A stretch of DNA of 64,000 nt from Pseudomonadota bacterium (GTDB taxonomy: Bacteria > Myxococcota > JACRCW01 > JAFGSX01). How positions within the stretch are numbered: the stretch's first letter is position 1; every line of letters starts with the position of its first letter. This document shows, in pieces, positions 14,501 through 47,473 of this stretch. A program made the position numbers and the translations under genes. Location of the stretch: positions 160,001 through 224,000 of the forward strand of contig JBDRCO010000037.1 of NCBI GenBank assembly GCA_043821645.1, given 5' to 3'. The notes under the pieces are model-generated. The model made no database searches. It was not told the origin of the DNA and worked only from the letters and a program-made list of their open reading frames with translations.

Positions 14501-15161
14501 TCTGCGAGGTGCCGCGCAGCACGGGGTGGTCCGGCGACATGGCGCGGGCGCGGTGGGCCCGCACCAGCTCGTCGTCGATCATCTGGCGCAGATCATCGTC
14601 GCTGAGCTCCTCGATCTTGGCCACCTCGTGGGAGGTGCGGAAGCCATCGAAGAAGTGCACGAAGGGCACCCGCGCTTCCAGTGACGCGGCCTGGGCGATG
14701 GCGACCGTGTCTCCGACTTCCTGCACCGAGCCCGAAGCGAGCAGGCCCCAGCCCGTGGCGCGCACGGCCATGATGTCCGAGTGATCGCCGAAGATGGACA
14801 GGGCGTGGGTGGCCAGGGTGCGGGCCGAGACGTGAAACACCGTCGAGGTCAGCTCGCCCGCCACCTTGAACATGGTCGGGATCATCAGCAGCAGGCCTTG
14901 GGAGGCGGTGAAGGTCGTGGTCAGGGCTCCCGTCTGCAGGGCGCCGTGCACCGCGGCCGCGGCTCCACCCTCGCTCTGCATCTCGACCACGTCGGGGACC
15001 GTGCCCCAGATGTTGGTCTTGCCCTGGGCGGACCACTCATCCGCCCATTCACCCATGTTCGAAGAGGGGGTGATCGGATAGATGGCGCAGATCTCGTTGA
15101 TGCGGTGGGCAACGTTGGCAGCGGCTTCATTGCCATCGATGGTGAGGATATTGCGGCTCAT
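11565..15161 (-). CDS. nifJ: Pyruvate:ferredoxin (flavodoxin) oxidoreductase, single chain
   Basis: YPITPS, EMQSEGGA, two ferredoxin CxxCxxCxxxCP motifs, GACSGCGET and GGDGWAYDIG TPP motif; AAGGAG RBS before ATG 15161. Confidence 0.97.
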   Translation of the reverse strand: MSRNILTIDGNEAAANVAHRINEICAIYPITPSSNMGEWADEWSAQGKTNIWGTVPDVVEMQSEGGAAAAVHGALQTGALTTTFTASQGLLLMIPTMFKVAGELTSTVFHVSARTLATHALSIFGDHSDIMAVRATGWGLLASGSVQEVGDTVAIAQAASLEARVPFVHFFDGFRTSHEVAKIEELSDDDLRQMIDDELVRAHRARAMSPDHPVLRGTSQNPDVFFQARETVNPYYDACPAIVQKAMDRFAKVVGRSYHLFDYEGAPDAERVIVLMGSGTEAAHETVEYLQAKGEKIGLVKVRLFRPFSREHLARALPASVKKIAVLDRTKEPGAGGEPLYKDVVTALAEMQAEGTLPTKTFPVVVGGRYGLSSKEFNAAMIKGVFDELKKDKPKQGFTVGIHDDVTHTNLAWDPTFSTEDNSVFRALFFGLGSDGTVGANKNTIKIIGTETENYAQGYFVYDSKKAGAVTVSHVRFGKKPVRSTYLIDQAHFIGCHQTVFLEKFDMLDKALPGATFLLNTQAPADKVWDTLPIEVQQSLIAKKCKFYVIDGYQVAQDANMGNRVNTIMQTCFFAISGVLPKDDAIAAIKGAIKKTYGGKGDRIVQLNYDAVDKTLENLHEVKVPAKVSSSFKRPPAVPEGAPEYVDQVVRQIILGKGDDIPVSAFPKDGSFPTGTTQYEKRNIALEIPVWDEKICIECGKCAMVCPHAAIRTKVYDKKFTQDAPPTFKWRETKDKQFPANSVYSVQVAPEDCTGCQLCVEVCPAKDKSNVSHKSLEMAAQPPLRAPERDNYNFLLKLPEIDRTLPKIHTVKGSQVLQPLFEYSGACSGCGETPYIKLMTQLFGDRAIIANATGCSSIYGGNLPTTPYTTRSDGRGPTWNNSLFEDCAEFGLGFRLTQDKHGQFARELLGKMGGALGANLVQGLLEADQTTEKGIAEQRARVAELKTKLDKDSSNDAKNLISVADALVRKSVWMFGGDGWAYDIGYGGLDHVLANNRDVNALVLDTEVYSNTGGQASKATPVGAVAKFAASGKPINKKDLGLIAMTYGHIYVAQVAMGANDAQCVKAFLEAEAYPGPSLIIAYSHCIAHGIPMEKGLEHQKAAVDSGHIVLYRYNPLLAREGKNPLKLDSKAPKISMKEYTYSETRYKMLTKSKPELAAKFLDMAQTAAQARWRFYSQLAEMRYSDEAVAGDKAGAAD

Positions 15162-15306
15162 CGGTATCTCCTTAGCGTGGCACCAGAGGGGCGGACCTCG
15201 AGGTCCGTGGGCCCGTCTCATACGTGCCGCCTGCACGAAGGGCAACGGTTATTTCCGACGCCGGGAGGCTGTGCGGACCCTTGTTTTTTTGTCTCGACCC
15301 ATCGCA

Positions 15307-15466: not shown

Positions 15467-15943
15467 ATGAACTCCCAGTTTGTGATGTACGAGGAGGAGT
15501 TCAAGCATATCCATGCGGTCTGCACCCGTTTGACCCGCGATGCGAATGCCAAGGTGGTCTTCCTCGTGGACAAGAATGGCCAGCTCATCGCGGCCACGGG
15601 CGAGGTCGCCAACCTGGACACCACGAGCCTGGCCTCGCTGACTGCGGGTAACATCGCCGCCACCGGCGGCATTGCCAAGCTGATCAACGAGAAGGAGTTC
15701 TCGCAGATCTTCCACGAGGGGGAGCGCGACAACCTTCACATCAGCATCGTGGGTCAGCGCGTGATCCTCGTCGTCATCTTTGATCACCGGTCGTCACTGG
15801 GACTGGTCCGGCTGCGGGTCAAGCGCGCCAGCGAGGAACTCAATGCGGTGTTCCTGCAGCTGGCCCAGAAGAGCGGGCAACCGAGTGCGATGTCGCCGTT
15901 CGCCGAGATCACCGACGACGACATCGACTCGCTTTTCAGCTAG
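15467..15943 (+). CDS. mglB: MglB, Roadblock/LC7 GTPase-activating protein
   Basis: VMYEEE, VFLVDKNGQLIA, SLASLTAGN, SSLGLVRLRV and the C-terminal FAEITDDDID-LF. Confidence 0.96.
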   Translation: MNSQFVMYEEEFKHIHAVCTRLTRDANAKVVFLVDKNGQLIAATGEVANLDTTSLASLTAGNIAATGGIAKLINEKEFSQIFHEGERDNLHISIVGQRVILVVIFDHRSSLGLVRLRVKRASEELNAVFLQLAQKSGQPSAMSPFAEITDDDIDSLFS

Positions 15944-16025
15944 GGGGCGTGCCGGGCACCCGTGAGGGACGCGGCCGGTACACTGAACGTGAGGCGGTCA
16001 GGGGCTCTGAAAGAGGACGCAGTCG

Positions 16026-16616
16026 ATGTCGTTCATCAACTATTCATCGCGCGAGATCAACTGCAAGATCGTGTACTACGGTCCCGGCCTGTGCGGGAAG
16101 ACGACCAACCTGCAGTACGTCTACAACAAGACCAGTCCCGACGCGAAGGGCAAGATGATCTCCCTCGCGACCGAGACCGAACGCACCCTGTTCTTTGACT
16201 TTCTGCCCTTGTCCCTCGGCGAGATCCGTGGCTTCAAGACGCGCTTCCACCTGTACACCGTTCCCGGTCAGGTGTTCTACGACGCCAGCCGCAAGCTGAT
16301 CCTCAAGGGCGTCGACGGCGTCGTGTTCGTGGCGGACTCGCAGATGGAGCGCATGGAGGCCAACCTCGAGTCCATCGAGAACCTCAAGATCAACCTCGCC
16401 GAGCAGGGCTACGACCTCAACAAGGTTCCGTACGTCATCCAGTACAACAAGCGAGATCTCCCGAGTGCCGCCACCGTCGAGGAGCTGCGACGCTTGCTCA
16501 ACGTCAATGGGGTTCCTGAGTTCCAGGCCACCGCCACCACCGGGGTGGGGGTGTTCGACACTCTCAAGGCCATCGCGAAGCTCGTGCTCCAGGAGCTCAA
16601 GAAGGGCGCGCCCTAG
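16026..16616 (+). CDS. mglA: MglA Ras-like polarity GTPase
   Basis: [40 protein letters not shown] and NKRD. Confidence 0.98.
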
Positions 16617-16682
16617 GTCCGGACTGCAGCCAGAAGGGGAGGCCTCGCCGTCGTCCGTCGACGGACAGCAGGGGAAATCATC

Positions 16683-17465
16683 ATGCGACATCTCATGTTT
16701 CGCTTCGCGCTCTTGAGCGCTGCGTTGGTCTGGGGCGGTGTGCTGATGGCACAGGCCGAAGGCGAGACGACGGTCGAGGCCACGCCTCCCGCAGCCGGGG
16801 ACCCGTCGTCACCAGCCGCAGCGGGCACCGAGACAGCCGTGGATCCTGCTCCCGCTCCAGCGCCGGCCGCCGGTGCCTCGGATCTCAAGACCGCCGACGA
16901 GAGCTACGAGGTCAAGATCCGGGACATCGAGGAAAGGGTCAACGAGCTCAAGGAGAAGATCTTCCAGTCCAAGGTGCGCCTGCTGTCCCTGCAGGAGGCC
17001 GTGTTCACCGGCGTGTCGTCCGGTGCTCGCGCCGTGCTCACCCACCGCAACGAGATGGGCTCGACCTTCCGCCTCACCGAGCTGCACTACTTCATCGACG
17101 GGGCGCCACTCCGGCAGGAGGTCGACGCCACTGGCGAGACCCTCTCGGCCAAGGAAGAGATCCAGCTCTTCTCGGGCAACATCGTCCCCGGAAACCACCA
17201 GATCACCGTCAACCTCGTCTACAAGGGCCATGGCTACGGTGTGTTCGCCTACCTCGACGGCTACACCTTCCGCATCAAGTCCAGCTACACGTTCAAGGCG
17301 GAGGAAGGCAAGGAGACCGAGGTCAAGATCGTTGCCTTCGAGAAGGGTGGCTTCACGACCGAACTTAAGGACAGGCCTGCGGTCCGCTATGACATCGAGG
17401 TCAAGAAGCAGCAGCGCAGGAAGCAGAAGGCGGAGGGCGAGCAGGCAGCGCCCTCGGTGCCCTGA
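16683..17465 (+). CDS. Exported protein with an A/P linker, coiled coil and beta-sandwich
   Basis: Signal peptide (AQA), heptad segment IRDIEERVNELKEKI, beta-rich C-terminus; first gene after mglA. Confidence 0.75.
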   Translation: MRHLMFRFALLSAALVWGGVLMAQAEGETTVEATPPAAGDPSSPAAAGTETAVDPAPAPAPAAGASDLKTADESYEVKIRDIEERVNELKEKIFQSKVRLLSLQEAVFTGVSSGARAVLTHRNEMGSTFRLTELHYFIDGAPLRQEVDATGETLSAKEEIQLFSGNIVPGNHQITVNLVYKGHGYGVFAYLDGYTFRIKSSYTFKAEEGKETEVKIVAFEKGGFTTELKDRPAVRYDIEVKKQQRRKQKAEGEQAAPSVP

Positions 17466-17497
17466 CACGTGTCAACCCAGAGCGAGCAGGCGGGATC

Positions 17498-19914
17498 ATG
17501 ACAGGCGGATGTCGAGGCATCGCACGCATGGCAGGAGGCCTCCTCTTGTGTGCGCTGGTCGTGCCCGCCCGCGCCGCCACTCCCACCTCTCTCCGCAGCA
17601 AGTTGCAGAAGCTCGAGGGATCGCTGGTCCAGGCCAAGGCCGAGGTCTCCGCTCTTGAGCGGGAGCTGAGCAGCGTCCTCGAGTCCTCGCGCCTGAAGTG
17701 CATGGAAGCCCGCGCCGAAGGACGCCTGGCCGAGGGCGCGCAATGTGGAGCGGTCGAGGAGAAGGTCAGCGAGGGACAGATCCTGCTTGACCTCGGCGAA
17801 AATGACAGGGCTGCGATCATTCTTTATGACGTCGTCACCGCACCGGGATTCGAGCGCAGCTTCCTTTACGAAGAGGCGGTCTCCACCCTCGCCGAGGCCC
17901 TGTACCGCAGTGGCAACTACATCGTGGCCAGGACCTACTTCCGCAGTCTGGTGCAGCGCGGCGCGCGGCTCTACGCCGAGAACTCGATCCAGCGCTTGAT
18001 CGAGATCAGCGGTCGACTCAATGACTACGGAGATCTCGACAGCTTCTTTGAGGCCTATCGCAAGATGTCCGGCGGCAGCGTTCGCCCCGAGATCGCCTAT
18101 GTGCGCGCCAAGTCCCTGATTCATGCGGGCCGCTCCGGCGAGGCCCTGCCCTTGCTCGAAAAGATCCCGCGCAACCACAACCTGTGGATGCGGGCGCAGT
18201 ACCTCTCCGGTGTGGCCGTGCTGGCGCCGGGCGGCGAGGCCGCCTTGCAGCAGGCGCTGGACTTCTTCAAGCGTGTCGGCGAGCAAGCTCCGCGCGACGC
18301 TGACGAGAAGGAAGTCCGAGAACTCGGCTACCTGGCACAGGGGCGTCTGTATTACGAGCTGGGCGACCTGGTGACCTCCATCGACGCCTACCAGAACATC
18401 CCTCGTGACTCCGAACACTTTCACGACATGCTGTTCGAGGTTGCCTGGGCCTTCATCAAGCGAGGGCAGTTGCTGTACGACCAGCCCGACCTGGCCCGGG
18501 CCGAATTTCGCAAGGCCCTGCAGGCTCTGGATCTCATCGTGGCACCTGGCAGCCGGCTCGAGCCCGAGATCGCGATCCTGCGCGGCAACCTGCTGCTCCG
18601 TCTCAGCGACTACGACGAAGCCACCAGCTCTTTCGCCGAGGTGGTGGGTCGTTACCAGACCACCGTGGACCAGCTCGAGGCCCTGATGGCCGAGCGTGGT
18701 GACGCCAGCCAGTTGCTCGAGGACATCCTGGCCGCCGACGAAAAGTCGCTGACGGTCAACACGCTGCTGCCCCCCCTGGCTGCCCGCTGGGCGCAGGGCC
18801 AGGAGGAGATCGACCAGGCGCTGCGGGTCTACAAGGACCTGCGCTACAGCAAGACCGAGCTGATCGAGACACGCAAGGTCATCGACAAGCTTCGTGCGGC
18901 GCTGGATTCGCCAAACCGCACCGAGCTGCTGCCTGCTTTCGGTGAGATCCACACACGCGGTCTCAATACCTACGACGCCCTGATAGGGTTGCGCAGTGTG
19001 CTGGTGGGCGTGCAGGGTGAGCTCCTCGACGCGACCAGGATTCCCGGCTACGCCGAGGTGGTGGAGCGGCGCAAGGTCCTGGAGAAGAAGTTTGCCTCCA
19101 TCCCCAAGACCCGAGAGGGCCTGACCGATCGCATGAACCGCATCGCCCAGCGCATCGAGGGTCTCGAACGCGACGTGTTCCGCCTCTCCCTGGCGATCGA
19201 CGAGGCCAATGCCCAGATCAAGGCCATGGAAGTGTGGCTGGTCAGTGTCAAGCAGTCCGGCAAGCTCGGCGCCGGCGAGATCGAGTTGATGAACGGTCGC
19301 CTGGCCCAGGCTCGTGCCGAGGTCGAGTACCTGCGCGAGGAACAGCAGGGGCTGGCAGAACTGCTCAAGCGTGAACATGCCCAGCTCACCGTGTCCGGCG
19401 GGCGGGCGCGCAAGAAGCCGAGATCCGCGCCGAGCTGGAGCGCACCCTGGCCGAGGAGGCCGGGCTGCTGAGCGGGGCGCGCAGTGGCGTGGACGCGGAG
19501 ACCCAGCAGATGCTCACCGAGGTCGACACGGTCGCGGTCGAGCTCGAGAACGTCATCGGCCGCCTGGAACGGTTCCGCGGTGCGCTCGATGGTCACGTCG
19601 AGAGCTACGTCACGGAGATGAAGCGCGCGATCTCCCGCGAGGAGCGCCTGCTCGACGAGCACGAGCGCGAGACCCTGCGCTACCAGAACCAGGCCGGAGA
19701 TGTGGCCGCCGGAGCTGCGGTGCAGGCACTGCGCGGTGTGCGGAACGATTTCCACGACTTCGTGCTGCGCGCCGACGTCGGCCTGGTCGACATGTCGTGG
19801 CAGATGAAGAAAGAAAAGTCGGACGAGATCTCGAAGATGGTCAAGCGGCAGCGCGCCGAACTCAAGGCTCTGGATGTGGAGTTCGGCGAGGTGCTGAAGG
19901 ATGACGAGGAGTAG
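17498..19914 (+). pseudogene. GltC-like TPR/coiled-coil protein split by a frameshift near 19397-19410 (ORFs 17498-19471 and 19489-19914)
   Basis: TPR motifs (LAQGRLYYE, FEVAWAF). Frame 1 degenerates after ...LTVSGG, while the -1 frame reads AQEAEIRAELERTLAEE... directly into the 141-aa ORF. Could be a real lesion or a sequencing error. Confidence 0.7.
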
Positions 19915-22900
19915 CCGGGTGCAGCGCTGGTCCATCCTCCTCCTGTGCATGGCCTCCCTGGCCCCGACCAGGCCCGCTGGGGCGCAGGTTGGCTCGGTAG
20001 TGCAGCCCGGTGACGCCCAGCTCCTCGACGAGATCCGCGAGGTGGTCGACGCCTTCGAGAAGCAGACCCGGGCCTACCGGCGGCAGGTGAACGGTCTGGT
20101 CCAGAGGCAGTACGAGGAGCGCCGCGCCCAGCTCTCCGAGACCTACGAGAAGGCGATCCGCGAGCTCGAGGTGGTCGAACGCCAGCGTCGGCTCGAGGCC
20201 ATCGCGCGCTTCGAGGCCTTCCTGCGGCACTACCCCGACAATCCACAGTACACGCCCGATGCCATGTTCAGGCTGGCAGAGCTTTACTACGAGCGATCTT
20301 ACGAGCAGTACCTGCAGGCCATGCGCGAGTTCGATCAGCAGGTCAAAGCCTTCGATCGCGGCGAGACCACCGACGACCCGGTGATGCCGAGCCAGCACTT
20401 CGAGGACTCGATCGCGCTGTACCAGCAGCTCATCAATCGGTTCCCGAGCTACCGGCTGGTGGATGCAGCCTACTACTTGCTGGGCTATTGCCTGGGCGAA
20501 CAGGGGGAGCTGGAGTCCTCGATCCAGACCTTCGTCACCCTCACCGAGAAGTACCCCGATTCTGGTTTTTACGTCGAGGCGTGGATGCGCATCGGCGAGT
20601 TCTACTTTGACGCCGACCGTCTGGACGAGGCTGTTCAGGCCTACACCCAGGTCACGACCAAGGGCGTGGGTACCAAGTTCTACGACAAGGGCCTGTACAA
20701 GCTTGCCTGGACCCACTACAGGCTCGACCTGTTCGACGCAGCCATTCGAGAGTTCCTGACCCTCGTCGACTACGCTGACGCCGAGAAGCTCAAGGGCAAC
20801 AACGAGGCCCAGTCCCTGCGACCGGAGTCCATCCAGTACGTCGCCATCAGCTTCGCTGACGAACGCTGGGACCGTGGCATTGCCTACGACTTCGAGGCGG
20901 ACCAGACCGGCGAGCAGATGGTGGATTTCGCGATCAGCTACTTCGCCTCGGCGGGCCATCGCCCCTACGAGCCCGAGATCATCGAGCGTCTGGGCGGCAT
21001 CCTGTTCGACAGCGCCAAGTACCAGGGCGCGGTCAAGGCCCTCGAGTACGCTCTCGACCAGGCCCCCCTGGCGCCGCAGGCTCCCCGGCTGCAGCAGAAG
21101 ATCGTCGAGGCCTGGGAACGCGCCCGACAGTTCGACAAGGCGACCGCCGCGCGCGACAAGCTGTTCGAGAAGTACGCGGAGAAGACACCCTGGTACGACG
21201 CCAATATCGAGAACGGTGAGGCCATCCGGGCCGCCCAGGAGTTGACCAAGAACTCGGTGTACGTGTCCGCGATCTTCCACCACCAGCAGGCTCAGCAATA
21301 TTTCCAGGAGCAGCGGCTGGATCTGGCCAAGGTCTCGTACGAGCAGGCGGCCAAGGGGTACCAGCGCTACCTCGACCGCTTCCCGCACGACAAACAGGCC
21401 TACGAGCTGCGGTTCTACCTGGCGGACTGCTACTTCTACTCCCTGGACTTCATGAACGCGGCCGACGCGTACCGCTACGTGCGCGACTCGACGGCAGGTG
21501 ACAAGTACCGCAACGATGCGGCCCTGGGCGTCATCTTCGCCTACCAGGAGGAGATCAAGCGGCTGGAGAAGGCAGGCAAGCTCGAGGCACGCAAGGTGCT
21601 GACCGGGGGCCGCGAGGGCGACACCCTTCCGGCTGCCGAGGAGATCCCGACGCTGCGGACGTCCTATATCCAGGCCTGCGACCGCTTCGTCGAGCTGGCC
21701 CCACAGCACGAGCGGGTGCCCGTTTTCTCCTACACCTCGGCCGAGACCTTCTACGTCTACAACCACTTTGACGAGGCCACCAAGCGCTTCGAGCAGATCA
21801 TCGAGAAGTACCCCACCGACGAGGTGGCCAAGTTCGCTGCGAACCTGATCATCGAGCTCCTGCTGGCCAAGAAAGACTGGGTTGCCGTCGAGAAATTCGC
21901 CCAGATGGTGCAGCAGCGACGGGTGGGCGACACCGAGGCCTACAAGAAGTTCGAGGTCGGCGCCCTGTTCAACAAGGCGAGCCAGTACAACGCCGAGGGC
22001 GAGAAGTTGCTTAGCGAGGGCAAGGCCAAGGAAGGCAACGCCAAGCTCGAGGCCGCCGCCGCCGAGTACGTGCGCCTGGTCAGCGAGAACCCCAAGCACG
22101 AGTTCGCGGACAAGGCCCTGTTCAATGCCGCGGTGGCCTACGAGCGCGTGCGCCGCTTCGAGTCGGCCGCGCGTCTGTACGAGCGGGTGTTCGATGAGTA
22201 CCCGCAGAGCGATCTCGCCGACAAGTCGCTGTTCCTGGTGGCACTCAAGAGCGAGCAGGCCTTCGACTTTGACAAGGCCATCGACAAGTACCTGAGGCTG
22301 GTCAAGGACTACCCCAAGAGCACCGACCGCGCCAACGCGCTCTTCAACGCGGCCCTCGCGCTTGAGAACACGCAGCAGTACGAGCGCGCGGCCCGGGAGT
22401 ACGAGCGCTACGCTTCGATGTTCTCCGATCGCGAGGACGCCCCCGAGACCTTCTACCGGGCCGCCATCGTGCATGAGAAGCGCGAGGACAAGGCTGCCAT
22501 GGTCTCGACCCTGTTCAAGTTCATCCAGAAGTACCGCAAGGACGCGCGCCAGGGCGACCGCGTGGTCGAGGCCCTGGGCAAGATCGCGACCTACTACGAC
22601 GAGGCCGGCAAGGACTCGGACGCGACCAAGTATTACGAGTCCGCGGTCAAGGAGTTCGCGGCCCGGGGTCTGGCGCCGGCCACGCGCGCTGGTTACTTCG
22701 CGGCCAAGGCTCGCTTCGCCCTCATCGAGAAGGAACTCAAGCGCTACGAGACCATCAAGATCGAGGGCGACGGCAAGAACCAGCAGAAGCAGCTTGCCCT
22801 CAAGGCCGAGCGCCTGAAGAAGGTCGAGGATCAGTACCGCACAGTGCTCGACTACAAGCAGATCGAGTGGTCCCTGGCCTCTCTGTATCGCATGGGCTTC

Positions 22901-23260
22901 CTGTACGAGAACCTGGCCGAGACCATGGTCGCCGCCGACTGTCCGAAGGACATCAAGCGCCTGGGCCAGGAGTACTGCGACGAGTACAAGGTCCTGCTCG
23001 AGGACAAGGCCGCCGAGCTGGAGCAGAAGATCGTGCCGGCCTATGAGCTGGCGTACAACGAGGCGATCAAGGCCAAGGTCATCAACGAGTGGACCAAGCG
23101 CACCCTCGAAGGCCTCAACAAGTATCGCAAGGCCCAGTACCCCATCGACAAGGAGCCCCTGGGACGGATGGTTCCTCCCTTGTCGACGGGCGCCGGACTG
23201 GTCATCCCCGACGAGGTTGCTGCTCGCATGGGCGCCGGGCGACAGATGGAGGGCAAGTGA
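19901..23260 (+). CDS. GltD/AgmU-like periplasmic TPR protein (cluster 1)
   Basis: Signal peptide; many TPRs (AMFRLAELYYE, EAWMRIGEFYF, LYKLAWTHY); C-terminal W-x-LASLYRMG and NEW motifs shared with 50223-53669. Confidence 0.8.
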   Translation: MTRSSRVQRWSILLLCMASLAPTRPAGAQVGSVVQPGDAQLLDEIREVVDAFEKQTRAYRRQVNGLVQRQYEERRAQLSETYEKAIRELEVVERQRRLEAIARFEAFLRHYPDNPQYTPDAMFRLAELYYERSYEQYLQAMREFDQQVKAFDRGETTDDPVMPSQHFEDSIALYQQLINRFPSYRLVDAAYYLLGYCLGEQGELESSIQTFVTLTEKYPDSGFYVEAWMRIGEFYFDADRLDEAVQAYTQVTTKGVGTKFYDKGLYKLAWTHYRLDLFDAAIREFLTLVDYADAEKLKGNNEAQSLRPESIQYVAISFADERWDRGIAYDFEADQTGEQMVDFAISYFASAGHRPYEPEIIERLGGILFDSAKYQGAVKALEYALDQAPLAPQAPRLQQKIVEAWERARQFDKATAARDKLFEKYAEKTPWYDANIENGEAIRAAQELTKNSVYVSAIFHHQQAQQYFQEQRLDLAKVSYEQAAKGYQRYLDRFPHDKQAYELRFYLADCYFYSLDFMNAADAYRYVRDSTAGDKYRNDAALGVIFAYQEEIKRLEKAGKLEARKVLTGGREGDTLPAAEEIPTLRTSYIQACDRFVELAPQHERVPVFSYTSAETFYVYNHFDEATKRFEQIIEKYPTDEVAKFAANLIIELLLAKKDWVAVEKFAQMVQQRRVGDTEAYKKFEVGALFNKASQYNAEGEKLLSEGKAKEGNAKLEAAAAEYVRLVSENPKHEFADKALFNAAVAYERVRRFESAARLYERVFDEYPQSDLADKSLFLVALKSEQAFDFDKAIDKYLRLVKDYPKSTDRANALFNAALALENTQQYERAAREYERYASMFSDREDAPETFYRAAIVHEKREDKAAMVSTLFKFIQKYRKDARQGDRVVEALGKIATYYDEAGKDSDATKYYESAVKEFAARGLAPATRAGYFAAKARFALIEKELKRYETIKIEGDGKNQQKQLALKAERLKKVEDQYRTVLDYKQIEWSLASLYRMGFLYENLAETMVAADCPKDIKRLGQEYCDEYKVLLEDKAAELEQKIVPAYELAYNEAIKAKVINEWTKRTLEGLNKYRKAQYPIDKEPLGRMVPPLSTGAGLVIPDEVAARMGAGRQMEGK

Positions 23261-24903
23261 TGCGCGTGCTGCTCACTGCTCTCACTCTGATGCTGTTGGC
23301 GGGCGCCTGTGCCACGACGGATAGCGCGGCGCGTCCGGACGACACCACCAGCAACAACACGGCGGCATCGACTCCGCCTCCACCTGCTGCTGCTGTCGAC
23401 GAGGCTGCCGCGCCGGAACCCACGCCGCCGCCGGCTCCCGAACCGACCGCGGCTGCGGTCCCACCAAAGCCTGCGCCACAACTCGAGGAACCCGCGCCCG
23501 AGGCGGTGGCAGACCCTGAGCCTCGGCTGTCCCGAGATGCATCTGCCAGCCAGGACTTCACCGACGGCGTCGCCGTGGCCGCAGCGGAGCCGGCTCGGGC
23601 CCTGGGTCTGTTCGAGCGCGCTGCGAAGAGCGACCCCGGCTTCGTGCTGGCCTGGCACAACGCCGGCGCGAGCGCCGAGCGCCAAGGCAAGCTCACGGAT
23701 GCCATCGCGTACTACCAGAAGGCACTCGAGCGTCGTCCGGACTACTTCCCGTCGCTGTACAGCCTGATCCAGATCTACACTCGTCAGGGCAAGGCCGCGG
23801 ATGCGCGCAGTCTTGCCGAACGCGCCGTCACCAAAAAGCGCAGTGCCTCGTCGCTGGCCGCAGCCAGTGCAGCTGCGCTGGCCGCTCGCCAGGTGGGGGA
23901 GGCCGAACGCCAGGCCAAGGCAGCCCTGAAGCTCGACGAGAAGTTCGTGCCGGCGATGTTGCTCCTCGCCGAGGCCTTTCATGCCCAGGGAAAGTTCGAG
24001 CTGGCCAAGTTCGTGCTCAGCAATGCCAAGGAAGTGGACCCGCGCAACGCGCTGGTGCACCAGGCTCTGGGACGAGCGCTGCTCGCGCTCAAGAACCCCC
24101 AGGGAGCCCAGCGCAGCTTCGAGGAGGCGATCGCGATCCGCCAGGACCTCGTCGAGAGCTACAACAACCTTGCGGTGCTGTACTACGAATCGGGCGACTA
24201 TGGCGCGGCTCTGACCTCGTCGAAGAATGCGGTGGACCAGGCTCCACAGCAGGGCGCAGCCTGGCTCAACTACGGCAATGCTCTGCGGGCTGCCAAGCGC
24301 CACGCCGAGGCTATACAAGCCTACGAGAAAACGATCTCGCTGTCCGATGCCGAGGCGGCGACCGCGGCGCAGTTCAACCTGGGCATCCTGTACATTGACA
24401 ATCCCGTCGACAAGCTCGACGACGTGCAGCGCATGGACAAGGCGATGGGCTATCTGAACGCTTACAAGGGGCGCGCCCGGCTCGACGAGGCCATGGCCGA
24501 GAAGCTCGACAAGTACCTCGCCGAGGCCGATCGCGAGAAGCAGCGCGAGCTCAAGCGCCGCGAGCGTGATGCCAAGCGTGCCGCCAAGGACGCCGCCAAG
24601 AAGAAGGCCGAAGAAGAAGCTCGGATCAAGGCCGAAGAGGAAGCCAAGCAGAAGGCTGCGGAAGAGGCAGCGCTGCTCAAGGCCCAGGAAGACGCGCGAA
24701 AGAAGGCCGAACAGGAGGCTCTCAAGAAGGCAGAGGCGGACGCTGCTCGGCAAAAGGCCGAGGCGGAAGCCGCCCGGCTCAAGGCCGAGGAGGAGGCGCG
24801 CAAGAAGGCCGAGGAGGCTGCCCGGCTGCAGGCCGAGGAAGAAGCGCGCAAGAAGGCCGAGGAAGAAGCCAAGCAGCGCAAGCTGGGTGGTGGCGGCAAG
24901 TAG
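23260..24903 (+). CDS. GltE/AglT-like TPR lipoprotein with a TolA-like C-terminal tail
   Basis: Lipobox LLAGAC after ATG 23260, Pro-rich linker, TPRs and K/A/E repeats. Confidence 0.78.
   Translation: MRVLLTALTLMLLAGACATTDSAARPDDTTSNNTAASTPPPPAAAVDEAAAPEPTPPPAPEPTAAAVPPKPAPQLEEPAPEAVADPEPRLSRDASASQDFTDGVAVAAAEPARALGLFERAAKSDPGFVLAWHNAGASAERQGKLTDAIAYYQKALERRPDYFPSLYSLIQIYTRQGKAADARSLAERAVTKKRSASSLAAASAAALAARQVGEAERQAKAALKLDEKFVPAMLLLAEAFHAQGKFELAKFVLSNAKEVDPRNALVHQALGRALLALKNPQGAQRSFEEAIAIRQDLVESYNNLAVLYYESGDYGAALTSSKNAVDQAPQQGAAWLNYGNALRAAKRHAEAIQAYEKTISLSDAEAATAAQFNLGILYIDNPVDKLDDVQRMDKAMGYLNAYKGRARLDEAMAEKLDKYLAEADREKQRELKRRERDAKRAAKDAAKKKAEEEARIKAEEEAKQKAAEEAALLKAQEDARKKAEQEALKKAEADAARQKAEAEAARLKAEEEARKKAEEAARLQAEEEARKKAEEEAKQRKLGGGGK
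24590..24885 (+). repeat. Coding degenerate tandem repeat (KAEEEAR/KKAEEAARL)
   Basis: Repeated aaggccgaggaa/gag units encoding a charged helix. Confidence 0.8.
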
Positions 24904-24946
24904 CCGGGGACCCGCGAACGGTCGCATCCTCGTCGACAGAGGTGGT

Positions 24947-25219
24947 ATGAAAATGCAGTTGCGCCGGCAAAGGAGCCGCCAGTATACTCGCTGCCTCGTC
25001 GGGGTCGGAGTCGCACTGACCCTGCTTCTGACGACGACAGCGGCGAGTGCGCAGCGGCGCAAGAAGATCGTGCTCAGCGAATTCGTGATCGAAGGGAGAG
25101 TGCAGAAGCCACAGGCCTTTCTTCTGCTGCAGAGGCAGAACCTGAACTTCGAGGGACTTCAACTCAAGAAGAGCTTCGTACCCAAGATTGTCAAGTCCGC
25201 CGACAGGAAGCCATTTTAA
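24947..25219 (+). CDS. GltF/CglF-like small exported protein (cluster 1)
   Basis: Signal peptide (ASA-Q) and IEGRVQKPQAF...SFVPKI, resembling IEGDLKTP...NF of 55185-55439; follows the gltE-like gene. Confidence 0.72.
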   Translation: MKMQLRRQRSRQYTRCLVGVGVALTLLLTTTAASAQRRKKIVLSEFVIEGRVQKPQAFLLLQRQNLNFEGLQLKKSFVPKIVKSADRKPF

Positions 25220-25373
25220 GGGTACTTGCCCGGGCCTTCGCGGCGACACAGAGGTTGTGCTAGGGTAAGCCCGCCGTGACAGAGAGAGTCCGGCGGTTCG
25301 TTCTGGGAGCAAGAGCCTCGCCCCTGAGGCTTGCATCATCGCGCCGGGAAAAGGCACAAGGAGGACGGTCACC

Positions 25374-26030
25374 ATGTTTGCAGCCATCGCCAAGTTCTTC
25401 GAGGACGGCGGACCGTGGATGTATCCCATCGCCGCGGTCTCAGTCGTCTGCGTCGCCGTCGCTATCGAGCGAATCGTATTCTTGTTCTTCCGCTACGATA
25501 TCAATGGCAACGCCTTCATGGCACAGGTCCAGAAGCTGGTGATGGCCAACAACATCGATCGCGCCATCAAGCTGTGCAACGCCGCCCCCAACGCGGCGCT
25601 GCCAAAGATCATCAAGGCTGGCCTCACCCGCGCCAACAAGGGTGAGATGGAGATCCAGAACGCGGTGGAGGAGAGCACGCTCGAGGTGGTGCCCATGCTG
25701 CAGAAGCGCACCAACTCCTTGGCGGCCCTCGCCAACCTGGCCACTCTGCTCGGTCTGCTCGGAACCGTCATCGGTCTGATCCAGGCCTTCAGCGCGGTTG
25801 CCAACGCGCCGCCGGACCAGAAGTCGGCCCTGCTGGCCTCCGCCATCTCGATCGCCATGAACACCACGGCCTTCGGTCTCATGGTGGCGATCCCGACCCT
25901 GTTTGTGCACCTGATCCTGTCGGGTGTGACCAAGAAGATCATCGACGAGATCGATATGTACTCGGTCAAACTCGAGAATCTGCTGATCGCGCGTGGCAAG
26001 GGCGGCTCGGCGGCCATGGACCGCGGCTAG
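25374..26030 (+). CDS. MotA/TolQ/ExbB proton-channel subunit (AglR-like)
   Basis: GGPWMYPI, ATLLGLLGTVIGLIQAF and ISIAMNTTAFGL; AGGAGG RBS. Confidence 0.93.
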   Translation: MFAAIAKFFEDGGPWMYPIAAVSVVCVAVAIERIVFLFFRYDINGNAFMAQVQKLVMANNIDRAIKLCNAAPNAALPKIIKAGLTRANKGEMEIQNAVEESTLEVVPMLQKRTNSLAALANLATLLGLLGTVIGLIQAFSAVANAPPDQKSALLASAISIAMNTTAFGLMVAIPTLFVHLILSGVTKKIIDEIDMYSVKLENLLIARGKGGSAAMDRG

Positions 26031-26137
26031 TCTCTTTCTGCCTTTTTTTGCGCGGACCCGGGCGACTCGCAAGCCCCGGAACTTCTGGCACCCCACGGTG
26101 TCAGATCTGCTGGGATTCGGTCGCGGGAGAGTGAGAG

Positions 26138-26665
26138 ATGGCCAGAAAACCATCCGAGCGGCGCCACGGTGCCGATGAGACGTCAGAGCTGAACCTGGTT
26201 CCGATCATGAACCTGGTGCTGATGCTCATCCCGTCCATCTTGATCACGGCGGCTTTCGTCGAGATCACGGTGATCAACGTTTCGGCGCCGCAGATCGGCG
26301 GTGGCGCTCCCCAGGAGCAGCAGGAAAAGCCTGACAAACCACCGCTCAATTTGACCATCGTATTGACCGACCAGGGGTTCACCATTGCGGGTTCGGGTGG
26401 TGTGCTGGGCCAGGAGCAGGCTGATCCCAATGCCCAGAAGGGGCCCACCATCCCGAAGACCTCGGCGGGTGACTACGACTGGCCAGGTCTGACCAAGAAG
26501 CTGGTCGAGATCAAGGATGCTTTTCCGGAAGAGACCAAGGTCATCGTCAACGCGGAGCCGGACATCAAGTACGAGTTCCTCGTGGGGACCATGGACGCGG
26601 CGCGCGAGACCACTGATCACCGCGAGCTGTTTCCCGACGTGATCCTGAGCGCAGGTATCACCTGA
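26138..26665 (+). CDS. ExbD/TolR subunit at the AglQ position, with Asn replacing the TM Asp
   Basis: ELNLVPIMNL TM start and AEPDIKYEFLVGTMDAAR periplasmic motif. Confidence 0.88.
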   Translation: MARKPSERRHGADETSELNLVPIMNLVLMLIPSILITAAFVEITVINVSAPQIGGGAPQEQQEKPDKPPLNLTIVLTDQGFTIAGSGGVLGQEQADPNAQKGPTIPKTSAGDYDWPGLTKKLVEIKDAFPEETKVIVNAEPDIKYEFLVGTMDAARETTDHRELFPDVILSAGIT

Positions 26666-26718
26666 TAGCAGTGAGGGTGAGGTGCCCGGAGCCGTGAACC
26701 ATCGCTGCGGAGCGTGAG

Positions 26719-27330
26719 ATGAGCGACGCCAGTCAGGAAAAAGATTTCAAGGTCCAGGAGGACGGCATCGGTGACGGTGGCGAGTTCGTCGGCTGGACCG
26801 ATGACCTCAAGGCTGCCCCCACCCAGCGCCGCAAGGGAAAGTCGAAGAGGGTCTCGGAGTACAAGGCCGCCCTCAACATGAACTCCCTCATGGACATCGT
26901 GACCATCATCCTGGTCTACCTGCTCAAGAGCTTTGCAGGCAGCCCGGTGTCGGTGCCCGATCCCAACGTCAAGCTGCCGGCCTCGACCGCCCAGCTGATC
27001 CCGGAAGAGGCGGCGACGATCACCGTGACGACGCAGCGAATCGTCGTCAATGACAAGTCCGTGGCGGAGATCAACGAGGGGCGTATCGACCCCAATGACA
27101 AGCGCGATGGCCCGCAGGGCTTCTTCATCACACCGCTGTACGACGCCCTGGTCGAGGCGGCGGACAACGAGAAGAAGATCGCCCAGTACAACCCGGCGCG
27201 GACCTTCAAGGGGATCAGCATTGTCATCTGCGACAAGAGCATCCCCTTCCGCCTGCTGTCCGAAGTCATGTACACGGCCGGCCAGGCCGAGTTCGGAAAC
27301 TTCAAGTTCGCCGTCATCAAGAAGGAATAG
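26719..27330 (+). CDS. ExbD/TolR subunit (AglS-like)
   Basis: LNMNSLMDIVTIILVYLLKSF and DKSIPFRLLSEVMYTAGQAEF. Confidence 0.9.
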   Translation: MSDASQEKDFKVQEDGIGDGGEFVGWTDDLKAAPTQRRKGKSKRVSEYKAALNMNSLMDIVTIILVYLLKSFAGSPVSVPDPNVKLPASTAQLIPEEAATITVTTQRIVVNDKSVAEINEGRIDPNDKRDGPQGFFITPLYDALVEAADNEKKIAQYNPARTFKGISIVICDKSIPFRLLSEVMYTAGQAEFGNFKFAVIKKE

Positions 27331-27415
27331 GCGGGTCTCGGGGGTCAGGGAGAGGTGTCGGTGCGCGTCGCCTCAGGACAGACGCGTGTATTGAAAGGGT
27401 GAGGAAGCAAAGGTC

Positions 27416-28786
27416 ATGGCCGCGCAAGCCACGGGCAAGATACTCCGCATCGGAGTGATCCAGAGCGGCAAGATCATCGAGGAGCGGCTCCTGCGCAAGC
27501 GGGACGTCGTCACCATCGGTACCGATACCAAGAACACCTTCGTGTTTCCCGCCTCGGAACTGCCCAAGGCCATCCGGCTCTTCGACTTCAAGGGTGGCGC
27601 CTACACACTGTGCTTCGACGACAAGATGGACGGACGTGTGTCCGTCGGTGAGTCTGTCCTCGACTTCACGGGACTCAAGACCCAGGGTGTGGCCAAGAAA
27701 TCTGGCGACCAGTACAGGGTGAGTCTCAATGAAGAGTCCCGCGGCAAGGTGGTCGTGGGCGGGTTCACGCTGCTGTTCCAGTTCGTGGTTCCGCCCCCTG
27801 AGCCTGCCAAGCCGCAGCTCCCGAGCGTGGCCAAGGGCGGCTGGGTCAAGTCCATCGACTGGTTCTTCACGGCGCTGATCGCCTGCTCGTTCGTGGCCCA
27901 CACGGGCTTCCTGGTCTCGTTCAAGTTCACAGATCTGCCTCCCAACCCGACGGTGTTCGAGCTGCCAGATCGCTTCGCCAAGTTCGTGGTGCCGGACAAG
28001 AAGAAGCGCGATCTCGAAGACGCGAAGAAGGCCGGCGAGGGCAAGACTGACGACGAGAAAAAGAAGAAAGCCAAGAAGAAGGCGGACGACGACGAGGGAG
28101 ACAAGAAGGCAGGCAAGAAGAAGGAGATGAGCGAGTCCGAGAAGGCCGCGGCGGCGGCTGCGCGCAAGGCGGCCATTCAGCAAAAGGTCGCAGGCAAGGG
28201 CTTGCTCAAGATCCTTGGCGCGCGGGGACCCGGGGCGGATGGTAGTGGCGCCATCTCCGACGTGTTCAGCGATGGCGGTTTGAGCGGCGATCTCGACGGT
28301 GCTTTTGATGGCACGTCCGGTGTCGGCATCGCCAACAGTGCCGATGAGACCACGCGCCGTGGCAGCGGTAGCGGTGAAGCCACCGGGATCGGCGACCTCG
28401 CCACCGAGGGCGTCGGTACTGCCAACACGGGTTCCAAGGGTGCCGTCAGCGTGCGGGGTAACATCCAGGCGTCCGCGGTCGAGTCCGTGGATGGCAGCCT
28501 GGACCCCAAGAAGATCGCCGCGGCGATTCGCTCACGTCTGTCGGGTATCAAGAATTGTTACGAGCAGCAGCTCAAGCGCAATCCGAAGCTGGCGGGCAAG
28601 ATCGTCGTTGCCTTTGTCATCGACGAAACCGGCAAGGTCAGCGAGGCGAGCGTGGACTCGGACACGCTGGGTGACGGCCAGGTGGCGAAGTGCATCATCG
28701 GGCTCATCCGGCGCGTCAGGTTCCCCAAGCCCGATGAGGGCACGGTCGAGGCCACCTTCCCCTTCGTTTTCACTCCAGCGGGCTGA
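27416..28786 (+). CDS. GltG-like TonB-type transducer (AgmX/PglI C-terminal domain), lacking a canonical FHA
   Basis: TM helix with an S-x3-H motif (SFVAH), K/E- then G-rich linker, and IKNCYEQQLKRNPKLAGKI...FPKP...FPFVF. Confidence 0.85.
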   Translation: MAAQATGKILRIGVIQSGKIIEERLLRKRDVVTIGTDTKNTFVFPASELPKAIRLFDFKGGAYTLCFDDKMDGRVSVGESVLDFTGLKTQGVAKKSGDQYRVSLNEESRGKVVVGGFTLLFQFVVPPPEPAKPQLPSVAKGGWVKSIDWFFTALIACSFVAHTGFLVSFKFTDLPPNPTVFELPDRFAKFVVPDKKKRDLEDAKKAGEGKTDDEKKKKAKKKADDDEGDKKAGKKKEMSESEKAAAAAARKAAIQQKVAGKGLLKILGARGPGADGSGAISDVFSDGGLSGDLDGAFDGTSGVGIANSADETTRRGSGSGEATGIGDLATEGVGTANTGSKGAVSVRGNIQASAVESVDGSLDPKKIAAAIRSRLSGIKNCYEQQLKRNPKLAGKIVVAFVIDETGKVSEASVDSDTLGDGQVAKCIIGLIRRVRFPKPDEGTVEATFPFVFTPAG

Positions 28787-28882
28787 TGACCGTACAATGG
28801 AACGCGCCAGGGCCAGCAGCGCCGGCGCGAGGCGGCGGCGGGCCCCTGCAGGCTCGACAATGGCGAGAGCGGGGAGGCGCAA

Positions 28883-29818
28883 GTGAAGGCCAAGTGGCTA
28901 CACGAGGTTCAGGATCTCCTCAACCAGGAGCAGTTCCGTGCCTGGTTCGATGACCTGGAGCAGGTCCGCATCGAACTCAAGGAGGCCGTGGAGCGCTACG
29001 AGGAGTTGCTGACCCAGGTCAATGTCAGCGAGTTCCGGAGCGAGCTGGCCCAGAAGAACGCCATCGATACCCTCTATCGTGCCAGCGAGTACGAGGACGC
29101 CGCGGCGCAGATGAACGCCGAGGCGACGGACCTCGAAAACAAAGCCATGGAGAACCTGGGCACCTTCGAGGAGCAGCGTGTGCATACCTCGGAGATCTGG
29201 TTCAAGCTGGAAGCTCTGGACCATGACTTGGAGGAGCATCGCAAGGCCAGCAACGCCGCTCGCGTCAAGGAGCTGGAGCGCGGCCGGCGCAAGATATCCG
29301 AGGAGTACGAGCGGGAAGCCGCCAAGAAGCAGCGCTTGTGGGAAGAGGTCGAGGCCATGTGGGGGATCAGCCTCGAGAAGAACCTGCTCACGAACGAGCG
29401 CAGTACCAAGGGCAAAGCCGTGCGGCGGCAAGCGGAGAAGCTTTTTGCCAAGGCCGAGGAGGCCAAGACCCAGGCCGAGGAGCTGCGGGCGGATGCCGAG
29501 GCCATCGCCCGGGAGCGCGAGCGGCTGGAAGAGCGCGAGCGGGAGCTAGTTGAGGACGCCAGGAGCCGGTTTGACGCGGTGCTGCACGAGGACTTCCTGT
29601 ACTGGCAGCAGCGCGAGAACAACAAGCGGGTCTGGGTGTCGCCCCTGATCTCGGACGTCAATAATTACAACATTTCCCTCAGGGCCTGTTCGGTGTATCA
29701 GTGTGAGCGGGGACGCGGCGTCGATTTCCTGGAACCCTTGATCGAGCAGGAAAAATCGTTGCAGGAGGATGGACGTCTCGACGAGTTCTTCAGTGGCGGT
29801 GCGACCAGCGTGCGTTGA
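28883..29818 (+). CDS. Cytoplasmic coiled-coil protein of unknown function
   Basis: E/K/R-rich heptads over most of the length and a small C-terminal beta domain; GGAGG RBS before GTG. Confidence 0.75.
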   Translation: MKAKWLHEVQDLLNQEQFRAWFDDLEQVRIELKEAVERYEELLTQVNVSEFRSELAQKNAIDTLYRASEYEDAAAQMNAEATDLENKAMENLGTFEEQRVHTSEIWFKLEALDHDLEEHRKASNAARVKELERGRRKISEEYEREAAKKQRLWEEVEAMWGISLEKNLLTNERSTKGKAVRRQAEKLFAKAEEAKTQAEELRADAEAIARERERLEERERELVEDARSRFDAVLHEDFLYWQQRENNKRVWVSPLISDVNNYNISLRACSVYQCERGRGVDFLEPLIEQEKSLQEDGRLDEFFSGGATSVR

Positions 29819-29827
29819 GGCAAGGCC

Positions 29828-30274
29828 ATGGACAAGATCGAGATCCTGCAAAAATCCCCGCTGTTCGAGAAACTCCTGCCTGCCGAGCTGGAGACCCTGG
29901 CAGAATTGACCCAGCCCCGTGAGTACGAGAGCGGCGAGGTCATCATCCGCGAGGGTGATGCAGGTGACGCTCTGTACATCCTGGTTCAGGGCGAGGTCGA
30001 GGTGCTGCGTAGGGATCCCCGTGGCGCCGACCACAGTCTGGCCGTGCTCACGGTTCCTGACTTCTTTGGCGAGATGTCCCTGATCGACAAGGAGCATCGC
30101 TCCGCAACGGTCCGTACCCGCACCCGGGTCACGGCCTTGACCTTGACCGCCGAGAACCTGCACAGCTTTGCCAAGGTCTATCGCGAGGGCTTCACCTGGA
30201 TCGCGGTCAACATCGCCAAGGTGCTCAGTCATCGTCTGCGCGAGACCAACCGTCGCCTCTCCGATCAGGGCTAG
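29828..30274 (+). CDS. Stand-alone cyclic nucleotide-binding domain protein
   Basis: IIREGDAGDALYILVQGEV and FFGEMSLIDKEHRSATV; no HTH. Confidence 0.92.
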   Translation: MDKIEILQKSPLFEKLLPAELETLAELTQPREYESGEVIIREGDAGDALYILVQGEVEVLRRDPRGADHSLAVLTVPDFFGEMSLIDKEHRSATVRTRTRVTALTLTAENLHSFAKVYREGFTWIAVNIAKVLSHRLRETNRRLSDQG

Positions 30275-30366: not shown

Positions 30367-30438
30367 CGGCGAGTTGACGCGAGTGCGTGGAGCGTGTCGC
30401 ACGCAGGGTCTCCCTGCACTGGACCACGGGGGTTCAAG

Positions 30439-43747: not shown

Positions 43748-43782
43748 GGTGGCGTCCTCGGGTTCTGGAGTGACGACGGAGA

Positions 43783-45210: not shown

Positions 45211-45372
45211 GGATTCCTCCCGCTCGGTCGTGTTGCCAGCGTCGCTACCTCAAACGGACACGCGAAGCCGACGATCTGTTCCTGGGACCTGCTTTTTCAT
45301 CATATGCCGAAACCGCGCACCAGGGCACTCGAAGGGGGGAGGCAGCGCGGGACACCGCCGCCGCGAGATTCT

Positions 45373-46419: not shown

Positions 46420-46426
46420 GTGAGGA

Positions 46427-47097: not shown

Positions 47098-47473
47098 ACC
47101 GGGAGACTCTGTGGTAGGATTTACCCCACTGGCCCATTAGTAATGAGGTGGTTGCGGGTGGCACGGGGCTGCGATAGTTATGGGTGGTTCGCGAGACCCC
47201 GAGGGGAGGCAATCCCGTTCCCGTGGGAGGTCCGGATGCTAAGCCAGTCCACCGTGCCCGCAAAAAGCTGCAGGGGTGCCGGGAGCTTGAGACGGCTGGT
47301 ACGCGGACTCGCCACGGCCACACCGGTGGTGAGATGGGCTCCGCTCCCCGGTCTGCAGAACGATCGACCCCGTGCTACTCGACGACGAGGCTGCACCGGC
47401 CGCCGCGGGGCGGACCGGCCCGGAATGTAAAGACCCCGCGAACGCTATCGCGCATGTTGCGACGGAGAACACC

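Follow-up and report, generated by a model that had tools for sequence, protein, structure and literature searches.

An mglBA-preceded, probably G4-type Glt paralogue cluster with an embedded TolQ-TolR-TolR motor in a member of the Myxococcota

The window analyzed here, a 64-kb stretch (~65% G+C) of contig JBDRCO010000037.1 from a member of the Myxococcota, contains at positions 15467-30274 a cluster of Glt-like genes that is likely an orthologue, with conserved neighbours, of the G4 cluster of Myxococcus xanthus, in an older arrangement that has kept a TolQ-TolR-TolR motor between the GltF-like and GltG-like genes. All cluster genes were read in this window and lie on the + strand, with intergenic gaps of -14 to 154 bp, from the ATG of mglB (15467) to the stop codon of a gene for a cyclic-nucleotide-binding protein (cNMP protein; 30274). 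Between them are mglA, the gene of an exported 260-aa protein (Exp260), GltC-, GltD-, GltE-, and GltF-like genes, the motor, a GltG-like gene, and the gene of a 311-aa coiled-coil protein (CC311). A first-pass annotation of the sequence had listed these genes, their strand, and the outer limits of the cluster, and all are present as listed; its gene anatomy needed correction in that the GltC-like gene is frameshifted, the GltE-like gene starts at 23260, and the GltF-like gene at 24947. Since 12 of the 14 open reading frame (ORF) pieces pass a filter on third-position G+C (GC3 > 0.78; the GltE-like and GltF-like pieces are outside the filtered list), and since the gene order recurs in related loci, the cluster is more than a chance arrangement.

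Besides G1 and G2, M. xanthus was reported to contain the glt-type clusters G3 (= nfs), G4, and G5, and one extra motor set, M2 (Luciano 2011, PMC3169522; this and the other papers below are cited from parts of their text). G4 comprises MXAN_1919-1923, whose products measure 447, 91, 490, 1111, and 809 aa; its GltC homologue, MXAN_1923, is two locus tags away from mglA (MXAN_1925) (Luciano 2011). The corresponding G-, F-, E-, D-, and C-like products of the window are of near-identical lengths (456, about 90, 547, 1119, and 657+141 aa). The GltC-, GltD-, GltE-, GltF-, and GltG-like genes of the window are co-directional and in order, next to mglBA and with a single gene, encoding an exported protein, between mglA and the GltC-like gene; neither cluster has a GltA/B/H barrel or a GltI/J/K homologue. 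Related loci were obtained by scanning one genome per species with a GltD-like alignment, and the best 80 of 544 relatives were taken as loci (designated L001 and so on); all 80 share the neighbourhood of the cluster. Those from Myxococcus species (L023, L031, L033, and L034) have the order mglB-mglA-Exp260-C-D-E-F-G-cNMP, with GltC-like proteins of 804-806, GltD-like of 1115-1123, GltF-like of 83-85, and GltG-like of 447-448 aa, and fit the DK1622 locus tags one for one. A search with the GltD-like protein (19901..23260, +) gave 918 homologues at E ≤ 1e-10. Its identity is 40-44% with the proteins from syntenic loci of Myxococcus and Archangium, compared to 26% with the canonical GltD-like protein encoded further downstream in the window. 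Because order, lengths, and mglA neighbourhood match and the Myxococcus loci fit the DK1622 tags, the cluster was assigned to G4. The window differs from M. xanthus G4 by the TolQ-TolR-TolR genes, where M. xanthus has nothing between the GltF-like and GltG-like genes, by CC311, and by the frameshift in the GltC-like gene. The cluster is less new than the first-pass annotation suggested, and the orthology to an already characterized system that would contradict this annotation applies only by half. The system has been described, G4 being named by Luciano 2011, but not functionally characterized, and the accompanying statement that its function is not known stands, as the same paper calls the functions of G4, G5, and M2 unknown.

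The neighbours of the GltD-like gene were counted by tblastn, upstream in the 58 loci with at least 5 kb before it and downstream in the 55 loci with at least 8 kb after it. The upstream set held mglB and mglA in 50 loci, across deep lineages, and the GltC-like gene and Exp260, the latter directly after mglA, in 56 each. Downstream, the GltG-like gene was found in all 55 loci, after the cluster's GltF-like gene (or the motor), the GltE-like and GltF-like genes in 54 each, the cNMP gene in 38, CC311 in a minority of 16, and TolQ-TolR-TolR in five. The recurrent order is Exp260-C-D-E-F-G, with mglBA before and cNMP after. Trees of GltD-like proteins, rooted on canonical GltD, were built with FastTree (74 rows, seven truncated rows being left out) and as an IQ-TREE quick tree (42 rows). 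Both contain five deep lineages and place the window inside the syntenic set. One five-row deep lineage is without motor, mglBA, and cNMP gene; L042, L051, L053, and L056 have kept only Exp260-C-D-E-F-G, and this lineage marks these six genes as the minimal conserved set.

A canonical gliding Glt cluster is located 17 kb downstream in the same window (47372 to beyond 64000, +). It encodes a myxobacterial outer-membrane barrel domain protein (107 bits, cut-off 60), GltC (568.7 bits, equivalog cut-off 450), a GltD-like TPR protein of 1148 aa, GltE (194.2 bits, cut-off 225), the product of a short ORF (55185-55439) at the place of GltF, a GltG that carries an FHA domain at its N-terminus (610.7 bits, cut-off 650), a CglE-like protein (114 bits, cut-off 70), and, at the place of GltI, a giant TPR protein that extends past the window's end. 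Against the same equivalogs, the products of 15467-30274 reached 61.6 (GltC), 70.9 (GltE), and 198.2 bits (GltG). The GltC-like protein shares 27% identity with the canonical GltC across 252 aa, the GltE-like protein is 27% identical to the canonical GltE, and the GltF-like protein 27% identical over 78 aa (E 4e-4) to ORF 55185-55439. With a canonical cluster in the window, identities of 26-27%, and far lower equivalog scores, 15467-30274 is, on sequence comparison, an old Glt paralogue and not the gliding genes. This bears out the earlier view of a Glt-like paralogue with its own TolQ-TolR-TolR motor, distinct from gliding. Pfam and NCBIfam gave no match to a GltA/B/H barrel or to GltI/J/K among the 14 cluster proteins, and none of GltK, CglB, and GltI/GltJ (outer-membrane module and cytoplasmic partners) was found within 15467-30274. 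The absence of barrel and GltI/J/K noted in the first-pass annotation thus holds inside the cluster, but the barrel, the CglE-like protein, and the GltI-like giant TPR protein are present 17 kb downstream. Membership in Glt proper was rejected on the equivalog scores, far below the cut-offs, and on the absence of an outer-membrane module, GltI/J, and an FHA domain on the GltG-like protein. Just upstream of the canonical cluster, 42488-46560 (-) encodes a VWA protein (43783-45210), an unknown protein of 419 aa (42488-43747), and, at 45373-46560, a GNAT-like protein of the Acetyltransf_6 family; equivalogs of the CglB type gave no match there.

The mglBA pair in front of the cluster encodes MglB (15467..15943, +; 158 aa), the Roadblock/LC7 GTPase-activating partner of MglA (Pfam Robl_LC7, E 1.3e-16), and MglA (16026..16616, +; 196 aa), the Ras-like polarity GTPase. 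The adjacent genes have the full-length similarity to solved structures that identifies an MglA/MglB polarity module: MglB gave 229.5 bits over residues 1-158 to PDB chain 6h5b_B ('MglB') and MglA 379.7 bits over residues 1-195 to PDB 6h17_A (entered as 'Mutual gliding-motility protein MglA'). On the NCBIfam MglB model, which is built on an equivalog of the Thermus type, the score was 81 bits (cut-off 200). The mglA gene product of the window is 81-93% identical to those of 28 related loci. In the literature searched, as cited here in part, we did not find it stated that mglBA precedes the G4-type cluster across most lineages. The gene order suggests that the machine may be controlled by MglA or by a cyclic nucleotide. 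The first-pass annotation had called it possibly MglA-positioned; the adjacency behind this proposal is conserved, as counted above, and is its sole basis. A complex prediction for MglA, CC311, GTP, and Mg scored 0.00 against a mark of 0.32, which is evidence neither way. It is a serious competitor, in our view only somewhat less probable than its opposite, that the position of mglBA reflects inherited gene order without functional coupling and that MglA neither positions nor regulates the machine. Mutants of mglA have an established motility phenotype, unlike the MXAN_1922 mutant, for which wild-type gliding and twitching were reported. Moreover, mglBA is absent upstream in eight of the 58 loci, the motor-bearing loci L047 and L049 have an insertion of about 5 kb between mglA and Exp260, the six core genes are kept without mglBA in the deep lineage D, and the contexts of group 1 MglA proteins were found to be variable in a survey of MglA neighbourhoods (Wuichet 2014, PMC4316618). 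The pair has nevertheless stayed next to the cluster in 50 of 58 loci over deep lineages. From mglA to Exp260, the predicted spacing does not exceed 150 bp in 46 of 54 loci, and in 12 of the 54 the two genes overlap or are at most 5 bp apart, with start codons picked by a heuristic and two large overlaps that are probably miscalls. The gap in the window contains no + strand terminator-like site, in a scan that was at chance level overall.

The embedded motor consists of a TolQ/AglR-type proton-channel subunit (25374..26030, +; 218 aa; MotA_ExbB 89 bits), TolR1 (TolR/AglQ-type; 26138..26665, +; 175 aa; ExbD 48.9 bits), and TolR2 (TolR/AglS-type; 26719..27330, +; 203 aa; ExbD 34.1 bits). TolQ is 63-69% identical to the embedded TolQ of seven related loci. 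Proteins of the TolR/ExbD type accept protons at a transmembrane Asp. When the eight embedded sets were aligned, this Asp was present in all eight TolR2 proteins, while the TolR1 position holds Asp in four sets and Asn in the other four (the window, L052, L064, and L070). The motor is embedded in seven of the 65 loci with both GltE-like and GltG-like genes (L047, L049, L052, L055, L063, L064, and L070) and in none of the loci from Myxococcaceae and Archangiaceae, where the GltF-like gene is directly followed by the GltG-like gene, as in M. xanthus. On the GltD-like trees it occurs in three deep lineages, namely a seven-row clade (including L052, L064, L070, L047, L049, and L063), L055 with L038, and the window together with L001 (the contig of L001 stops short of the motor position). 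The crown clade of Myxococcaceae and Archangiaceae, which is without the motor, makes up 57 of the 74 FastTree rows and 25 of the 42 IQ-TREE rows. The fewest changes of motor state on the tree are two, and the embedding is likely to be ancestral. This would agree with the published 'core complex' of GltC/D/E/G plus AglRQS, whose homologues were reported to lie in one cluster outside Myxococcales and Bdellovibrionales (Luciano 2011). Like the window, which combines GltC/D/E/G homologues, one TolQ-type gene, and two TolR-type genes in a single region, the core complexes of Gammaproteobacteria, Geobacter, and Fibrobacter have these seven gene kinds in one co-directional cluster of unknown function; beyond them, the window adds the GltF-like, Exp260, mglBA, CC311, and cNMP genes, while the core complexes outside the myxobacteria were said to have a characteristic additional gene.

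The M. xanthus motor set M2 (MXAN_3003-5) is an orphan set of Agl homologues and was reported to be dispensable for motility (Wartel 2013, PMC3858216). Like the embedded motor, M2 has one TolQ-type and two different TolR-type genes (260/173/193 compared to 218/175/203 aa), but it is unlinked to G4 in M. xanthus. The text of a tree file lists Plesiocystis pacifica EDM80280, EDM80281, EDM80282, and EDM80286 with MXAN_1923, 1922, 1921, and 1919, and EDM80283, EDM80284, and EDM80285 with MXAN_3003, 3004, and 3005 (Luciano 2011). Since the EDM accession numbers are consecutive, name order and numbering suggest that Plesiocystis has a C-D-E-motor-G arrangement like that of the window, with a motor that is M2-like. 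M2, so far an orphan, is probably the motor of G4. We did not find this stated in the literature searched, as cited in part, although the supplementary figures of Luciano 2011 may show the Plesiocystis arrangement; beyond Luciano 2011 and Wartel 2013, no later paper naming G4 or M2 genes was found in that literature, which did contain a comparative-genomics paper that names MXAN_1327.

Alternatively, the embedded TolQ-TolR-TolR genes could be the gliding AglRQS of this organism and serve the canonical Glt cluster 17 kb downstream, with no separate machine. The canonical cluster has no motor genes in the window (47372-64000+), Agl is a modular motor that works with Glt as well as with Nfs in M. 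xanthus (Wartel 2013), and with 64 kb of the genome in view a separate aglRQS may or may not be present elsewhere. This explanation is nevertheless very unlikely. In seven loci and the window, the motor is placed inside the G4-type cluster, after the GltF-like and before the GltG-like gene, and the Plesiocystis set in the equivalent position is listed with M2, not with MXAN_6860-62, in the tree-file text of Luciano 2011. A mutant in the aglQ homologue of M2 has normal motility, MXAN_3003 showed no two-hybrid interaction with GltG or NfsG (Wartel 2013), and aglRQS is unlinked to glt in M. xanthus as well (Luciano 2011).

Among the putative periplasmic subunits, Exp260 (16683..17465, +) has a signal peptide, a disordered Pro/Ala-rich stretch, a long helix, and a beta domain. 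It belongs to no Pfam or NCBIfam family, and nothing meaningful matched the beta domain in Pfam at E ≤ 10. In an AlphaFold2 (AF2) model with a pLDDT of 73.5, the disordered linker is followed by a 39-residue helix (70-108) and by strands (115-242) that form a beta-sandwich and not a barrel. A fold search against the PDB gave no match at E ≤ 1e-3, the best being weak matches to transthyretin or Bacteroides adhesin-type beta-sandwiches, and the only Atlas look-alikes were Myxococcota clusters without a Pfam family, some automatically named 'dihydrolipoamide acetyltransferase'. The GltD-like protein has a signal peptide and TPR repeats with six YbgF-type stretches (156.9 bits). The GltE-like gene (23260..24903, +) encodes a 547-aa TPR protein whose N-terminus is lipobox-like (AGAC at residue 15) and whose C-terminal tail is rich in Lys, Glu, and Ala. 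The GltF-like gene (24947..25219, +) encodes a small exported protein without a family match, even in Pfam at E ≤ 10.

The GltC-like gene (17498..19914, +), encoding a TPR/coiled-coil periplasmic protein, is split into 17498-19471 and 19489-19914. The frame that starts at 17498 enters an out-of-frame tail near 19392-19410 and stops at 19471, while the homologous reading resumes in another frame, open from 19375. In 66 of the 67 loci holding both parts the gene is a single ORF of about 790-850 aa; it is also split in L006. Either a genuine mutation or a misassembled G+C-rich run may be behind the frameshift, both being equally simple. Together with the Asn in TolR1, it is what would speak for a cluster decaying in this organism, a pseudogenised remnant and no longer a working machine, an explanation we hold to be quite improbable, as none of the other genes is disrupted and their GC3 is 0.79-0.91, the Asn is common to L052, L064, and L070 while TolR2 keeps its Asp throughout, a single-base error in the assembled contig would account for the split equally well, and L006 shares it.

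The GltG-like protein (27416..28786, +; 456 aa) is a bitopic inner-membrane protein with a cytoplasmic beta-rich domain, a transmembrane helix (149-169), a charged Gly-rich periplasmic stretch, and a TonB-C-like end, and its AgmX/PglI C-terminal domain scored 104.5 bits against a cut-off of 40. BLASTP aligned only the last 100 residues with the 710-aa canonical GltG, while hhalign covered residues 265-709 of the latter (probability 100, E 1.5e-41). The protein has thus kept everything from the pre-helix domain and the helix through the periplasmic stretch to the TonB-C-like end, and is without the N-terminal FHA part; Pfam at E ≤ 10 gave nothing meaningful for its N-terminus. CC311 (28883..29818, +) is a cytoplasmic coiled-coil protein, predicted (AF2, pLDDT 88.3) to form an antiparallel helical hairpin with helices of about 100 residues (16-121 and 125-230) and a small beta domain. 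It has no Pfam or NCBIfam family, nothing meaningful matched its C-terminus at E ≤ 10, and the Atlas gave nothing usable. A fold search against the PDB had no match at E ≤ 1e-3 and returned weak, generic long coiled coils (SMC arms and chemoreceptors). A match to SH3BP5 (4.6e-3, TM 0.19-0.29) was considered as a sign of a guanine nucleotide exchange factor (GEF) relative and was not so read, the similarity being that of a generic coiled coil. The cNMP protein (29828..30274, +; 148 aa) is a stand-alone cyclic-nucleotide-binding domain (cNMP_binding, 84.7 bits) in which F80, G81, E82, R91, and A93 are invariant in 27 homologues. The Gly-Glu and Arg-Ser-Ala positions (G81, E82, R91, and A93) make up the phosphate-binding cassette.

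For the gliding machinery, an AlphaFold model of AglR5QS-GltG-GltD-E-F-C has been published, in which the GltG helix lies beside the channel formed by an AglR pentamer and an AglQ/AglS heterodimer, GltD is wrapped by a disordered periplasmic part of GltG and carries the TonB-C-like domain at its N-terminus and GltE at its C-terminus, GltF bridges GltG and GltC, and GltC docks onto outer-membrane porins (PMC11761067). The window encodes a homologue of each inner-membrane and periplasmic part of this model, plus Exp260. By homology with the Agl-Glt and Tol systems, a TolQ pentamer with a TolR1/TolR2 heterodimer, in which TolR2 keeps the transmembrane Asp, would use the proton gradient and act on the single transmembrane helix of the GltG-like protein, whose long periplasmic stretch and TonB-C-like end would contact the TPR pillar formed by the GltD-like protein. 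Attached to this pillar would be the GltE-like lipoprotein, the GltC-like and GltF-like proteins, and probably Exp260. The proton-driven motor would then move or tension a periplasmic TPR assembly through the GltG-like transducer, with peptidoglycan, an unlinked outer-membrane protein, or Exp260 as candidate distal partner. The path from motor to GltG to GltD is the one we infer for the Agl-Glt gliding machinery (G1, G2, M1), where AglR binds GltG in a two-hybrid assay (Luciano 2011) and whose subunits are homologous. The window differs from Agl-Glt in being without the GltA/B/H/K barrel or lipoprotein and GltI/J, and its GltG-like protein is without the N-terminal FHA domain that the published model docks on GltI (PMC11761067). 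Since there is no barrel, GltI/J/K, or FHA domain on the GltG-like protein, and since published mutants argue against it (a polar mutation in the G4 gltD homologue MXAN_1922 left gliding and twitching unchanged, Luciano 2011; a MXAN_3004 mutant of M2 is motile, and deletion of MXAN_3004 leaves sporulation normal, Wartel 2013), a role in gliding or spore-coat formation is not expected. The cluster thus likely encodes a trans-periplasmic force transducer that drives neither gliding nor spore-coat assembly.

Nfs (G3, nfsA-H) is likewise a Glt paralogue repurposed for a non-motility task, but keeps A, B, and H homologues and borrows AglRQS, whereas the window has none of these three and its own motor; membership in Nfs was rejected on these grounds. 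Tol-Pal shares with the window a TolQ/TolR-type motor, a TolA/TonB-like transducer, and the CpoB/YbgF-type TPR seen in the GltD-like protein. It differs in its equivalog scores (54.2 bits for the window's TolQ against a cut-off of 221, and 23.2 against 127.3 for TolR) and in that the window has two different TolR-type genes and no TolB or Pal match in the cluster, and membership in Tol-Pal was rejected as well. Our best guess from the gene content is nevertheless an envelope task of the Tol-Pal kind. Nothing in the analysis supports a role in prey contact, which the first-pass annotation had also considered.

Several points weigh against the G4 orthology, the ancestral motor, its link to M2, and the proposed mechanism. 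G4 orthology was deduced from other Myxococcus species and from published lengths and locus tags, with no DK1622 sequences. The root of the trees is a long paralogue branch (3.27 changes per column), and the order of four lineages next to the crown lacks resolution; the ancestral embedding is for these reasons only one parsimonious reading. The link to M2 comes from name order in tree-file text and from consecutive accession numbers, not from drawn trees, and named Myxococcus M2 or Agl proteins were not among the matches in the homologue searches with TolQ and TolR1, which were all unnamed or MAG proteins. TolR1 of the window has Asn at the Asp position. If the genome contains no separate aglRQS, the motor could also serve the canonical Glt cluster. 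The GltC-like frameshift may mean that the machine is defective in this organism, or that the assembly is wrong. Finally, motility and sporulation were the only phenotypes scored in the published mutants, and the one in MXAN_1922 carries a polar insertion.

Downstream of the cNMP gene, 30394..35190 (+) encodes a secreted FG-GAP repeat protein of 1598 aa with a signal-like N-terminus (FG-GAP_3, 106 bits). A gene of this type follows the cNMP gene in four of the 55 loci (L068, L070, L077, and L079), and the protein is possibly a lineage-specific accessory or cargo whose membership in the cluster is doubtful. It is followed by a radical SAM protein (35205-36263, -) with 198.6 bits on the archaeosine RaSEA equivalog (cut-off 212), unusual in a bacterium. 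On the other side, a pyruvate:ferredoxin oxidoreductase (11565-15245, -) is divergent from mglB, and the closest locus, L001, has the identical left neighbour. Rfam and tRNA scans found no element, and the scan for signals was at chance level, with 11 terminator-like sites (10.0 expected) and one promoter-like site (1.3 expected).

Clusters of this sort, with no known role and no motility phenotype, have been part of the literature since 2011. The window brings in no new kind of system; its cluster probably belongs to the G4 type and corresponds to the core complex as defined. A far-reaching version, which we regard as speculative and unlikely to hold as a whole, would make G4 and M2 a third complete machine of the Agl/Glt class. 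Its original operon would have included mglBA, and the MglA GTPase would first have been its switch and later been borrowed by gliding and pili; the machine would be polar via MglA-GTP and tuned by a cyclic nucleotide through the cNMP protein, with CC311 as a cytoplasmic adaptor in some lineages. More modestly, G4 and the orphan M2 have been of unknown function since 2011-2013 in the best-studied gliding bacterium, and the finding sharpens two testable hypotheses on this system. The window and seven related loci keep the motor inside a G4-type cluster, which leads to the hypothesis that MXAN_3003-5 is the motor of MXAN_1919-1923, and mglBA precedes the cluster in most lineages, which leads to the hypothesis of a link between the machine and the polarity switch MglA. 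If both are true, the Agl/Glt class would gain a third task besides gliding and spore-coat assembly.

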